Below, one piece after another: positions 17,670 through 21,186 of a DNA stretch of 64,000 nt (within the stretch, counting starts at the first letter, position 1; each line of letters starts with the position of its first letter). Location of the stretch: the NCBI GenBank assembly GCA_000004695.1, contig CM000150.2, positions 2,368,001 through 2,432,000 on the forward strand, given 5' to 3'. The translations under genes were made by a program, and so were the position numbers. Source of the stretch: Dictyostelium discoideum (lineage: Eukaryota). The notes beneath the pieces are model-generated. The model was given only the letters and a program-made list of their open reading frames with translations, was not told the origin of the DNA and ran no database searches.

Positions 17670-18935
17670 TCACACATAAGTTGTACATCCACTATCATCG
17701 CTACTATTATTAAGATGTTGTTGTTGTTGTTGGTGATGGTATTGATGAGAATGGTGATGAATAATATTACTACTATTCTCCAGTTCCTCACCTTCCTTCT
17801 TTAAATTATTAATTTGTTCTTTTAGTTTTTCAATCTCTTGAAGTAATTGTTCGTTCTTCTTTCTATTTTCAGAGATTGATTCTCCAATAAGTTTTGACGA
17901 TGGTGATGATAAAGTTGATGATGATGATGATGATGATGATGATGATGATGATGATGATGATGATGATGATGATGATGATGATGATGATGATGATGATGAA
18001 CAATATTGTCTCTCTTCCTTCATTGATTCAATAGAATTATCATTAAATTCCTTCACAGTATGTTGATAATTTTGAGATTGATAGTTTTGAGATGATGATG
18101 TTGTTGTTGTTTTTAATTTTTTAATTATATTATGAGATTCAAAGAATAGGGTTGAAATGAAATTAGTTATAGGTTCACCACCAAATTTAAAAATACGTAT
18201 AGTTATACTCTTTTTATTAGAGCTATCATTTGTATTGCTACTATTAAAATTGCTGCTACTGCTACTACTACTACTATTACTACTACTACTAAAATTATCA
18301 ATATCCAAAATCAACTCTTTATTTAATAATGATTCGTTGAATATACCATTTCTAACTGATTGGAATTGAAATAATTCTTTACAAATATTCATTTGAATTT
18401 CAACCAATCTCTTTGTAATTTCAATACCACTAGATTCAAATGAAACACCCATTGATTCTAATCTTTCTTTTAATTGAATCCTTTGATAAAAGAAATTAAA
18501 ACAAATTAATGATCTATATGAAAATAATTTTGATAAACATTCATTATATAATTTCATTTCATTTTCTAAATTATTATCCTCATTATTATTATTATTATTA
18601 TTATTATTATTATTATTATTATTATTAATACTTCCACCACCACCAAAATGAATACTAGTTGAAATAACAGAGGACCATGGTGTAACATTAGAATTATTTG
18701 ATTGATTTGATGACAAAATAACATTCTTTTCAACATCTAATTGAACATTCTTTTTAATTTGCAAAATGTTATCTAAAAATTCATTATAACTTCTCTTATT
18801 ATTTACAATAGTTTCACGAATAGATAATACACTTCCACTATATTTTTGATAAACTCTTTTCATATGCATAACATTATCATAAAATAAATCTTTTTCAAAA
18901 TTATTATAATTAAAAATAAAATTTAAAATATCCAT
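17670..18935 (-). CDS. Truncated paralogue of the giant gene (421 aa; one repeat module, a coiled-coil, then a His/Gln-rich tail)
   Basis: The N-terminus MDILNFIFNY...KYSGSVLSIRETIV matches module 4 of the giant protein (KYSGSLLDIRETIV). It also carries FFYQRIQLKERLE and FKFGGEPI motifs. It is on the same strand, 500 bp upstream of the giant gene's ATG. Confidence 0.6.
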   Translation of the reverse strand: MDILNFIFNYNNFEKDLFYDNVMHMKRVYQKYSGSVLSIRETIVNNKRSYNEFLDNILQIKKNVQLDVEKNVILSSNQSNNSNVTPWSSVISTSIHFGGGGSINNNNNNNNNNNNNNNEDNNLENEMKLYNECLSKLFSYRSLICFNFFYQRIQLKERLESMGVSFESSGIEITKRLVEIQMNICKELFQFQSVRNGIFNESLLNKELILDIDNFSSSSNSSSSSSSSNFNSSNTNDSSNKKSITIRIFKFGGEPITNFISTLFFESHNIIKKLKTTTTSSSQNYQSQNYQHTVKEFNDNSIESMKEERQYCSSSSSSSSSSSSSSSSSSSSSSSSSSSSTLSSPSSKLIGESISENRKKNEQLLQEIEKLKEQINNLKKEGEELENSSNIIHHHSHQYHHQQQQQHLNNSSDDSGCTTYV

Positions 18936-19059
18936 TATGACTTGATCACTTCTAAAATATTTAAAAATAAAATAATATAAAATAAATATTAATTTAGAAA
19001 TAATTAATATTAATTTGTTTTTTTTTTTTTTTCAAAAATATAATCAAAAAAATGGTTTC

Positions 19060-21186
19060 TTACTCTTTTAACTTTTGAGGTGAAGGTAATGAAGATGATA
19101 AAGAAGTAGAAGAAAATGAATAAGATGGTTGAACTATAATCTTTGGTTCTATTCTATTTGATTGTACAGGGTTAACAATAATTTCATTTTGATTATTATT
19201 ATTATTATTATTATTATTATTATTATTATTATTATTATTATTATTATTATTATTATTATTATTATTATTATTATTATTATTATTATTATTATTATTATTA
19301 ATAATATTATTATTATTAATACTATTATTATTATTATTATTATTATTATTATTATTATTATTATTATTATTATTATTATTATTATTATTATTATTATTAT
19401 TATTATTATTATTATCTAAATCACTAATAGCAAATGATGGTTTAGTTTTAATTTTAATTTGTTTATTTTTTTGAACTAATTGATAAACTTGATTAAACAA
19501 TGATTGAATTACATCAGAGATATCATTATCAATTATTAATGATGACGACAAAGAAGATGAAGATGAAGATGAAGATGAAGAAGAAGAAGAAGAAAAAGAA
19601 GATTGATCATTGATATTTGAATCAAAGGTTGAATTATTATTATTATTATTATTAGAAGTAATAGAAGCATATGAAAATGGTGAAGGTACTAATTTAAATA
19701 TTGGTATTGTAAAAGATTGACCATCAATAATGAAAATAAAATTCTTTGCAATTTTATTGAATCTTGAGAAATCACGTTTTGCAATATCATAGATATAAAG
19801 TGGAAAAGAATTATGAAATATACTTAGATCATTCATTCTCTTGGTTTGAATTTGTGGTGATTGTTGTCTATGAATTGGATGTTCTTTTAAAAGTTTTCTT
19901 TGATACATGAAATTGAATTCAACGATTAATCTCAACTCTAAATATTTTGAATACAACTCACTCTCCAAAATTGCCTGTCTATCCTTGATTATAGTTTCTT
20001 CCATTATCAATTTTATTGCATTCTTTTTGATGGTTTCAATCTTTACATCAATACCTTTTTGACTATCTCTACTTAACATTAGCTCTTTTATAATGGTTAA
20101 ACTATTCTTATAACTTGGATAACTTTTTATTAATCCATCAACTGTATTCACAATCTTACAAATATCAATTGATTTAAATATTGTTATGAATATATTATTA
20201 TCAATTATATTTGTTATATTATTTTGTTGTTGTGGCAGTGGTTGTGGTGGTGGTGATGATGATAGTAATTGTGATGGTGAAATACTATTATTATTATTAT
20301 TATTTGATATTAATTTAAATTGTGTAGTATTATTATTATTATTACTATCAACCTGTTGAAGATATTGAGTTGATTTTGGTGGAGATAAATCAATATTAAG
20401 AGGTGATGATGATGATGATGATGACGATGAAGATGATGATGGTGGTGTTGTTGTTGTAATGGTAGTAGAATTAACACTAACATTTTGTAGATCTTGAGGT
20501 ACATTGGAATGATGTAAATGATGATGTTTTGTTATCTTTTGAATTTCATAATAGTTTGATAGGATTGCATGATTAATATCCTCATCATTACCTAATTTAA
20601 ATGATGGTACCACTATTGTTTGGTTATTCATAACTTTGAAAGCAAATGAACTGAACATCTTTGCGTATCTCCTACTATAATCTTTATACACCATATCAAT
20701 GAATGATAATGGTGCTGAATTATGATAAGAACTAAGTTGTTGTAATTGTTGTTGTAGCTGTTGTTGCTGTTGTTGTTGTTGTTGTTGTTGTTGTTGTTGT
20801 TGTTGTTGTTGTTGTTGTTGTTGTTGTAGAAGCTGTGATTGTTGAAGCTGTTGTTGCTGTTGTTTAAATAAATCTTTTAAAAATTTTCGTTGAAATTGAT
20901 TACTAAATTCAATCATTGATCTTAATGAAATGTATAAATCCAATGCTTGATTTTCAATTGGTTTGATAGTGTTATTGATATTATTTTTATTATAGTTTTC
21001 AATATCAATATTCATTGAAATGAAATCTTTAGTTGCCATACTTTTTATCTTTTCCATTTTTTCTTCAAACTTTGCTCTCTCTCTATCTGATATTAATGAT
21101 TTACCCATTGATGATATTATTTTATTTATTTCAATTTTAAATACTCCATTGGTTATTTGGTTATTATTAATATTATTGTTAAACAT
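19060..21186 (-). CDS. Truncated paralogue of the giant gene (708 aa; two repeat modules, poly-Q, poly-N and poly-S tracts)
   Basis: It contains two copies of the module (EFSNQFQRKFLKD; EFNFMYQRKLLKE; APLSF; PIFKL). The 3' ~150 nt (19140-19200) is near-identical at the DNA level to 11295-11350 of the giant gene (...NQNEIIVNPVQSNR...). Confidence 0.6.
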   Translation of the reverse strand: MFNNNINNNQITNGVFKIEINKIISSMGKSLISDRERAKFEEKMEKIKSMATKDFISMNIDIENYNKNNINNTIKPIENQALDLYISLRSMIEFSNQFQRKFLKDLFKQQQQQLQQSQLLQQQQQQQQQQQQQQQQQQQQQQQLQQQLQQLSSYHNSAPLSFIDMVYKDYSRRYAKMFSSFAFKVMNNQTIVVPSFKLGNDEDINHAILSNYYEIQKITKHHHLHHSNVPQDLQNVSVNSTTITTTTPPSSSSSSSSSSSSPLNIDLSPPKSTQYLQQVDSNNNNNTTQFKLISNNNNNNSISPSQLLSSSPPPQPLPQQQNNITNIIDNNIFITIFKSIDICKIVNTVDGLIKSYPSYKNSLTIIKELMLSRDSQKGIDVKIETIKKNAIKLIMEETIIKDRQAILESELYSKYLELRLIVEFNFMYQRKLLKEHPIHRQQSPQIQTKRMNDLSIFHNSFPLYIYDIAKRDFSRFNKIAKNFIFIIDGQSFTIPIFKLVPSPFSYASITSNNNNNNNSTFDSNINDQSSFSSSSSSSSSSSSSSLSSSLIIDNDISDVIQSLFNQVYQLVQKNKQIKIKTKPSFAISDLDNNNNNNNNNNNNNNNNNNNNNNNNNNNNNNSINNNNIINNNNNNNNNNNNNNNNNNNNNNNNNNNNNNNNNNNNQNEIIVNPVQSNRIEPKIIVQPSYSFSSTSLSSSLPSPQKLKE

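Follow-up and report, generated by a model that had tools for sequence, protein, structure and literature searches.

Helicases of the Upf1/Sen1 type and the terminal uridylyltransferases (TUTases) TUT4/7 are directed by non-catalytic domains or by partner proteins. The CH domain of Upf1 acts with Upf2, TUT4 has an N-terminal module that interacts with Lin28, and the RNA-directed RNA polymerase complex (RDRC) of S. pombe combines the helicase Hrr1 with Cid12 and Rdp1. Here we describe a locus of Dictyostelium discoideum at which a giant gene joins a helicase and a nucleotidyltransferase of these kinds to a long array of repeated N-terminal modules, next to a smaller gene that carries modules of the same family. 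The window (the whole stretch of DNA analysed) comprises 64,000 nucleotides (nt) of contig CM000150.2 in assembly GCA_000004695.1, positions 2,368,001 to 2,432,000 of the forward strand, and coordinates below are those of the window unless a locus is named. In a preliminary description of this DNA, the interval 17670-21186 was taken for two truncated paralogues of internal pieces of the giant gene. We consider it highly probable, as a structural and evolutionary account, that the interval is instead a single two-exon protein-coding gene, an ancient and conserved partial duplicate of its giant neighbour.

Two open reading frames (ORFs) occupy the interval, at 17670-18935 (421 amino acids, aa) and 19060-21186 (708 aa); the giant gene, a 4540-aa ORF at 3552-17174, is encoded on the same strand. 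As already described, 124 nt separate them from each other and roughly 500 nt (495 by our count) separate the 421-aa ORF from the giant ORF. The shorter spacer, 18936-19059, had been mentioned as a possible intron, with a GTAAGA donor and an in-frame TAG|AAG acceptor; both are present, and homologous introns occur in D. purpureum. The spliceosomal intron that we predict spans 18952-19063 on the minus strand (112 nt, GTAAGA...TTTTAG) and falls in phase 2 within a Glu codon. Its donor context is ...TTA AAA GA|GTAAGA, such that the splice donor itself forms what looks like a stop codon at the end of the 708-aa ORF. At the other end, the acceptor context is TTTTAG|A AGT GAT CAA GTC ATA ATG, and TTTTAG is the sole acceptor that preserves the frame; the spliced frame reads ...PQKLKE-SDQVI-MDILNF.... 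The guanine-plus-cytosine (GC) content of the intron is 8%, below the 23-24% of the small-gene exons; that of intergenic DNA is 11-12%.

Reconstructed from the ORF list and these splice sites, exon 1 (19064-21186, minus strand) begins with an ATG at 21186, after a run of 65 A residues, and contributes 707 codons plus 2 nt that encode two modules, Sa and Sb, and a poly-Asn linker; its N-terminus is comparable to that of the D. purpureum protein discussed below. Exon 2 (17670-18951, minus strand) includes 16 nt ahead of the ATG of the 421-aa ORF; it encodes SDQVI, a third module (Sc) and, behind these, a poly-Ser tract, a coiled coil and a His/Gln tail, and ends in a TGA stop at 17670-17672. The predicted product has 1134 aa: three modules followed by the coiled coil. 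Two further features place the start of Sc ahead of the second ORF: in hidden Markov model (HMM) domain searches the module profile match begins upstream of its ATG, and in an AlphaFold2 model of Sc the first helix runs from residue 2 of SDQVIMD..., that is, from upstream of the Met. A view based on ORFs would split one intron-bearing gene into two 'fragments', a misreading that the gene model corrects. On the opposite strand, the 'ORFs' at 18157-18369, 19162-19419 and 21020-21268 (all plus strand) are poly-Leu, poly-Ile and poly-Phe mirrors of the poly-Ser and poly-Asn tracts and of the A-run, and are not genes.

The closest relative of the small gene was sought with a profile in an exhaustive search of 1.84 billion representative proteins, which returned two matches only, both from Dictyostelium (D. 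purpureum and D. citrinum). The strong match (E = 4e-248) is D. purpureum DICPUDRAFT_98522 (XP_003289907.1, UniProt F0ZR66; P0001 in our module names), a 'hypothetical protein' of 1899 aa with seven modules. A word-index protein search with the Sc region, and another with a 12-module alignment, gave no match, although this index missed even the D. purpureum protein. DICPUDRAFT_98522 is one polypeptide that holds the equivalents of both ORFs: Sa, Sb, a G4-type module (named after module 4 of the giant protein) and, after it, the coiled coil NExLLxEIxKLxExINNLK. A single intron of 72 nt interrupts its gene, at ...SLKE|NDSLLNLF..., in phase 2 within a Glu codon and right before a G4-type module; the small-gene intron, at ...KLKE|SDQVIMDILNF..., has the same place and phase. 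Because the orthologue is a single polypeptide and its intron matches in position and phase, the two ORFs are, on this comparative and sequence evidence, the two exons of one intact gene and not the separate genes that had been supposed.

Module grouping and gene neighbourhood agree with this orthology. In a bootstrapped neighbour-joining (NJ) tree of 27 modules, Sa groups with the first module of the D. purpureum protein (P0001_m1, 98%) and Sb with the second (P0001_m2, 95%), to which it is 57% identical. Sc is placed only to the level of a G4-type clade {G4, DgB_m1, Sc, m4, m6} that has 95% support and whose inner branching is unsupported. We also considered Sc as an m4/m6 hybrid made by internal deletion, and rejected this since its N- and C-terminal halves give no such signal. 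Most modules of the giant proteins pair one-to-one between the species, at only 28-38% identity. In D. purpureum, 741 nt separate the small gene from a downstream neighbour on the same strand that encodes eight modules and, after them, an AAA_11 helicase. Another helicase (AAA_11/AAA_12) plus MTPAP-like/TUTase gene has its 3' end ~7 kb upstream of the small gene (L001:2-2797 of that locus, plus strand); such genes are therefore clustered there. The two small genes differ in that the D. purpureum protein has a complete first module, and seven modules in 1899 aa against three in 1134 aa here. A repeat-bearing patch that encodes NQNEIIVNP (see below) is absent there; the D. purpureum protein, being uncharacterised, gives no functional information.

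Each small-gene repeat belongs to a family of modules of about 190 aa, as judged with a profile built from the modules of the giant protein. Sa (20527-21186, minus strand; residues 1-220) has a Q-rich insertion and lacks ~17-19 residues (helix 3) relative to its D. purpureum orthologue; its profile match is in two parts (independent E-values of 1.4e-18 and 9.7e-28). Sb (19468-20193, minus strand; residues 332-573), with a Ser/Asn-rich insertion ahead of its last helix, scores 5.6e-53. Sc (18117-18950, minus strand; residues 709/716-986) is of the G4 type and carries two disordered low-complexity insertions, one of which splits the match in two (4e-20 and 1.2e-30). The predicted coiled-coil or helical segment (17778-17870, minus strand), ENRKKNEQLLQEIEKLKEQINNLKKEGEELE, is conserved after module 6 of the D. 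purpureum orthologue. A Pfam scan of both ORFs (E <= 0.01) found neither an AAA_11/AAA_12 helicase core nor an MTPAP-like or PAP-associated nucleotidyltransferase domain, and a profile scan of the linkers found no remnants of lost modules.

Paralogy of both ORFs with internal modules of the giant gene, the central claim of the preliminary description, is upheld. Residues 3-273 of the 421-aa ORF match giant residues 931-1134 (G4), as had been proposed, with E = 3e-26 after SEG masking and 1e-29 unmasked; the similarity thus extends beyond low-complexity tracts, and the motif quoted for it, KYSGSVLSIRETIV / KYSGSLLDIRETIV (KYSGS...IRETIV), is present. On core columns, Sc and G4 are 39-41% identical. 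The 708-aa ORF had been assigned to modules 5-6, which is correct in that Sb matches G5 best (E = 6e-21 unmasked; then G6, G1 and G3, among matches to every standard giant module) and incorrect in that Sa is closest to G1 and the ORF is not collinear with modules 5-6. The order of elements in the small gene (G1-like, standard, G4-like, coiled coil) is rather collinear with G1 to G4 of the giant. A match between the tails that follow Sc and G4 had likewise been claimed; their score of 71 exceeds the shuffle mean (51 +/- 6.4) and is marginal, being reached by 1 of 300 shuffles, and the small-gene coiled coil is only weakly similar to giant residues 1340-1371.

The modules share the consensus ILKxIF...YP...R.LIEFS..YQRK.LKE...HN..PL...I.IP.FK...EDIS, and an AlphaFold2 model of G3, built with the 12-module alignment, is confident (predicted local distance difference test, pLDDT, 88.8; predicted template modelling score, pTM, 0.86). 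It shows six helices, a short helix, a beta-hairpin and a C-terminal helix. The Sc model has its elements in the same order, with ordered blocks at pLDDT 85-96 and disordered insertions, and these two models suggest that Sc would adopt the family fold. No Pfam family covers the modules in any of the proteins that bear them, no relative of the module was found in the PDB, and a literature search on Dictyostelium helicase-TUTase proteins found nothing relevant. From the sequences searched, the family appears to be restricted to Dictyostelium, where it has several paralogues.

One of these paralogues is in D. citrinum. On contig JBTAPL010000041.1 of that species (locus L002), KAN0034489.1 and an adjacent 2294-aa product (L002:9713-18798, plus strand) together contain modules followed by AAA_11/AAA_12, MTPAP-like and PAP_assoc domains. 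The same module family thus stands ahead of a helicase and a nucleotidyltransferase, as in the giant gene, whereas the locus is a different one, flanked by cyclin, aminotransferase and kinase genes, and the gene is not an orthologue of the small gene. KAN0034489.1 itself (378 aa) has half-modules at both ends and a tail that resembles intron read-through; it is probably the mis-split 5' part of the adjacent gene, an ORF-splitting artefact of the same kind as that which yielded the two small-gene ORFs.

The age of the duplication can be read from the introns. In D. purpureum, the giant gene has a 77-nt phase-2 intron (L001:18760-18836) at ...NIRE|DIHTLLKMIF..., right before its own G4-type module, and the intron therefore predates the small/giant duplication. 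At the equivalent point the giant gene of the window (about 14405, residue 923/924) reads ...SSSE SNDMIILILK... without interruption. The homologous intron is found in three of the four genes compared and is missing only from the window's giant gene, which, as its sequence indicates, lost it precisely. At least one further intron (about 20678-20750) interrupts the D. purpureum giant gene, and that of the window has none. As the tandem pair is present in D. purpureum, it predates the split of the two species.

Nucleotide comparisons give a similar picture. In blastn, leaving aside alignments of AAT repeats with the giant gene's other AAT tracts, the only close match between the small and giant genes is at 19137-19335 (96%); the next best are 73-75% identical over 84-102 nt, both between Sc and G4. 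Use of the same codon at identical residues of Sc and G4 (58 observed, 49.8 expected) has a z of 1.9, other pairs giving 0.1 to 2.8; synonymous sites are saturated for all small-gene/giant-gene pairs. The dN/dS ratios called for earlier were computed by the Nei-Gojobori method (NG86) and are uninformative for the paralogues, with AT bias dominating third-position identity and synonymous sites saturated; against the orthologous D. purpureum modules they are ~0.13-0.28. The interval thus has neither the high nucleotide identity nor the unsaturated synonymous sites of a recent segmental duplicate. Sc is 39% identical to G4 as against 27-30% to the G4-type modules of the D. purpureum small gene. 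Recent conversion of Sc by G4 may have contributed to this, although the NJ tree lends it no support inside the clade and codon matching stays at the z of 1.9.

We propose the following history. The small gene would have arisen long ago, when the 5' part of a giant-type gene was duplicated in tandem at the DNA level together with the intron ahead of its G4-type module. The copy would have been in place before D. purpureum split off and would have been retained ever since, separate and intact, beside its giant neighbour; the giant gene of the window would later have lost that intron precisely. Of the earlier account, an origin by partial duplication of DNA stands, and its recent date does not: the pair is common to D. 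purpureum, synonymous sites are saturated, and only one short patch is recent.

This patch has the form AATAATATTATT-(AAT)n-CAAAATGAAATTATTGTTAACCCT[G/A]TACAATCAAATAGAA[T/A]AGAACCAAAGATTA. The small-gene copy (19137-19311, minus strand; 175 nt) lies in the Sb-Sc linker and consists of AATAATATTATT, (AAT)36 and 55 unique nt, encoding NNII-N36-QNEIIVNPVQSNRIEPKI. The giant-gene copy (11291-11489, minus strand; 199 nt), in the G6-G7 linker just upstream of G7, is composed in the same way with (AAT)44. In the coding direction, AATAATATTATT and the pure AAT tract precede the 55 nt in both genes, and both copies are upstream of a G4-like module. Between 19137-19191 and 11291-11345, 53 of 55 nt are identical (matched in 0 of 100 shuffles); both differences are non-synonymous, there are no synonymous ones, and identity drops off immediately 3' of the patch. 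The copies are ~7.8 kb apart, and the patch was looked for and found absent at the D. purpureum (L001) and D. citrinum (L002) loci. The patch is most likely due to gene conversion or template switching, recent and over a short tract, between tandem paralogues; it would have been exchanged between the two genes long after the duplication, seeded by the trinucleotide tract. The near-identity of the last ~60 nt of the 708-aa ORF, with its (AAT)n, had been noticed before and is real; the patch lies, however, 75-130 nt before the end of that ORF rather than at its very end. The locus is an ordinary case but a neatly documented one, a clean example of an ancient partial tandem duplicate dated by a common, conserved intron and overlaid by a much younger conversion tract beside a trinucleotide repeat.

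Two other accounts of the interval deserve to be weighed against a single, intact, ancient gene. According to the preliminary description, the ORFs would be two independent truncated genes, pseudogenes or fragments, copied from internal pieces of the giant gene by recent unequal crossover. Each ORF does have its own ATG and stop codon, and the 55-nt plus (AAT)n patch matches the giant gene at 96% identity; yet the stop of the first ORF arises from the GTAAGA donor, the third module and its first helix begin before the second ATG, the intron's position and phase are kept in two D. purpureum genes, and the orthologue is a single polypeptide. Outside the patch, moreover, identity to the giant gene is only 20-41% with synonymous sites saturated, and the gene pair is older than the split from D. 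purpureum, all of which makes this account very unlikely. Somewhat less improbable, while still unlikely, is that this is one gene in decay, which formerly had seven modules, lost four of them and part of Sa, and is now functionless and filling with homopolymers. Its three modules against seven, the deletion of 17-19 residues in Sa, the long Q, N and S runs inside modules and the NG86 dN/dS of ~0.8 for Sc-G4 could all be so explained. Decay is hard to reconcile with 1134 stop-free codons without a frameshift at 23% GC (in 500 shuffles the longest open run averaged 65 codons, with a maximum of 139), with intact splice sites and a retained intron, and with dN/dS of 0.13-0.28 relative to the orthologous modules. 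An invariant Q and L and near-invariant I, F, L and K are kept in 12 of 12 modules, Sa, Sb and Sc included, and Sc is modelled with the family fold; the label of pseudogenes therefore does not fit. Homopolymer tracts are, besides, common in functional Dictyostelium proteins. Nor need the gene be truncated: with two species compared, either number of modules may be ancestral, and the pairs m2/m3 and m4/m6 may stem from duplications within the D. purpureum lineage. Several points nevertheless weigh against an intact and constrained gene. The splicing is predicted from comparative and sequence evidence, and an exact look-up of the spliced protein, of both ORFs and of the giant protein found no entry in the collections searched; the D. 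purpureum gene models are themselves computational predictions. The lower number of modules, the shortened Sa and the long homopolymer insertions in all three modules could reflect relaxed constraint. A further point is the Sc-G4 dN/dS, although dS is unreliable at such base composition.

It had also been allowed that all three ORFs might form one spliced transcript. The two ORFs of the small gene do join, but fusion to the giant transcript is unlikely. It would need an intron of ~510 nt with its donor, GT|GTGAGG, just before the small-gene stop and its acceptor, ATGACAAG|C, a short way into the giant ORF; this donor and acceptor do exist and would keep the frame (...TTY-V-QQHDIV...), although one such pair in three would do so by chance. 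The usual Dictyostelium donor is GTAAGT, from which GTGAGG departs, and ~510 nt would be an unusual length for an intron. The spacer itself (17175-17669; 495 nt) has 11% GC with long A and T runs and resembles other intergenic regions. In D. purpureum, the equivalent spacer is 741 nt at 10% GC, and there is no GT near the small-gene stop. In both species the giant ORF begins with a Met immediately before module 1, just past an in-frame stop, which in the window is a TAA at 17204-17202 with no AG between it and the giant ATG. We give a transcript of all three ORFs next to no credence, and a separate small gene beside the giant one is the reading that we retain.

The giant gene (3552-17174, minus strand) is an intronless, uninterrupted ORF whose 4540-aa product has nine modules, a superfamily 1 (SF1) helicase and a nucleotidyltransferase. 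The modules span residues 8-2723, the N-terminal 60% of the protein: G1 8-197, G2 438-623, G3 675-855, G4 931-1134, G5 1394-1590, G6 1675-1863, G7 2005-2205, G8 2285-2468 and G9 2540-2723. The helicase (residues 3556-3934, AAA_11/AAA_12) is Sen1/Upf1-like and the nucleotidyltransferase (residues about 4216-4341 onwards) is Cid1/TUT4/7/GLD2-like; Pfam matches to the helicase and to the MTPAP-like/PAP-associated domains score 4e-56, 2e-45 and 1e-18, and by sequence this catalytic part matches Sen1, Upf1/NAM7, TUT4/7, GLD2 and Cid1. G4 (13773-14384, minus strand), the nearest paralogue of Sc, is preceded by the intronless ...SSSE|SND.... Compared with this N-terminal array, the small protein shares the ~190-aa module, a G4-type module in Sc, an order collinear with G1 to G4, and the 55-nt plus (AAT)n patch; it differs in having neither helicase nor nucleotidyltransferase domain, in its 20-41% identity and in keeping the intron that the giant gene lost. 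The D. purpureum giant gene lacks an equivalent of G7 (10545-11183, minus strand), its orthologues of G6 and G8 being only ~55 residues apart; because G7 has no close paralogue, its loss in D. purpureum is more likely than its gain here. Between the module array and the helicase, residues 2803-3253 (7416-8768, minus strand) contain five copies of (S/P)F(T/I)YVP(G/A) within Asn/Asp-rich low complexity, beginning at residues 2803, 3105, 3164, 3200 and 3249, which may represent a repeated short linear motif.

The surrounding window has 18-33% GC and nine tRNA genes, and its coding sequences contain poly-Asn, poly-Gln and poly-Ser tracts; an Rfam scan of 16500-23500 found tRNA only. Downstream of the tRNA-Asn(GTT) gene (22364-22438, minus strand), by ~40 nt, is a second B-box-like sequence, GGTTCGATTCC (roughly 22320-22330). 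Just upstream of the same gene are two 97-nt direct repeats (22485-22581 and 22684-22780), 95% identical, with 199 nt between them and an A-run after one copy. The B-box-like copy and the repeats may be remnants of a retroelement targeted to tRNA genes. On the strand opposite to the small gene and upstream of it are ORFs of 98 aa (21897-22193, plus strand) and 444 aa (22879-24213, plus strand), both without a Pfam match.

What the small protein does can be addressed only tentatively. As a non-catalytic array of modules, it would bind the class of partner (RNA or protein) that is bound by the N-terminal array of the giant protein, and would then either assist the helicase-TUTase, being its adaptor or subunit, or compete with it. 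Such roles suggest themselves because the module is shared with the N-terminus of the enzyme and the coiled coil is conserved. We regard a functional coupling of the small protein to the helicase-TUTase as possible, though on balance doubtful. The role of partner or competitor is a putative one, and a neighbouring position is by itself weak support for it. More speculative still is the proposal that the module is an undescribed, dictyostelid-restricted fold that targets a fused Sen1/Upf1-like helicase and terminal uridylyl/adenylyltransferase to its substrates. The small gene would then encode a separate regulatory subunit or decoy, would have been retained next to the gene of the enzyme, and would still exchange sequence with it by conversion, of which the 55-nt patch would be a sign. 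Were this true, one would have here a new module of RNA surveillance or RNA tailing that comes with its own non-catalytic paralogue. As far as sequence analysis goes, a confidently modelled, uncharacterised domain family, an unusual helicase-TUTase fusion and a stand-alone paralogue are candidates for work on RNA decay and small RNAs in Dictyostelium.

Set beside the Upf1/Sen1 and TUT4/7/Cid1 systems, the modules resemble the regulatory domains of those proteins neither in sequence nor in structure to any detectable degree, and the comparison is one of analogy rather than membership. The likeness lies in the catalytic part of the giant protein, and in a division of labour whereby substrate choice falls to non-catalytic parts, as it does in those systems and as we infer for the module arrays here.

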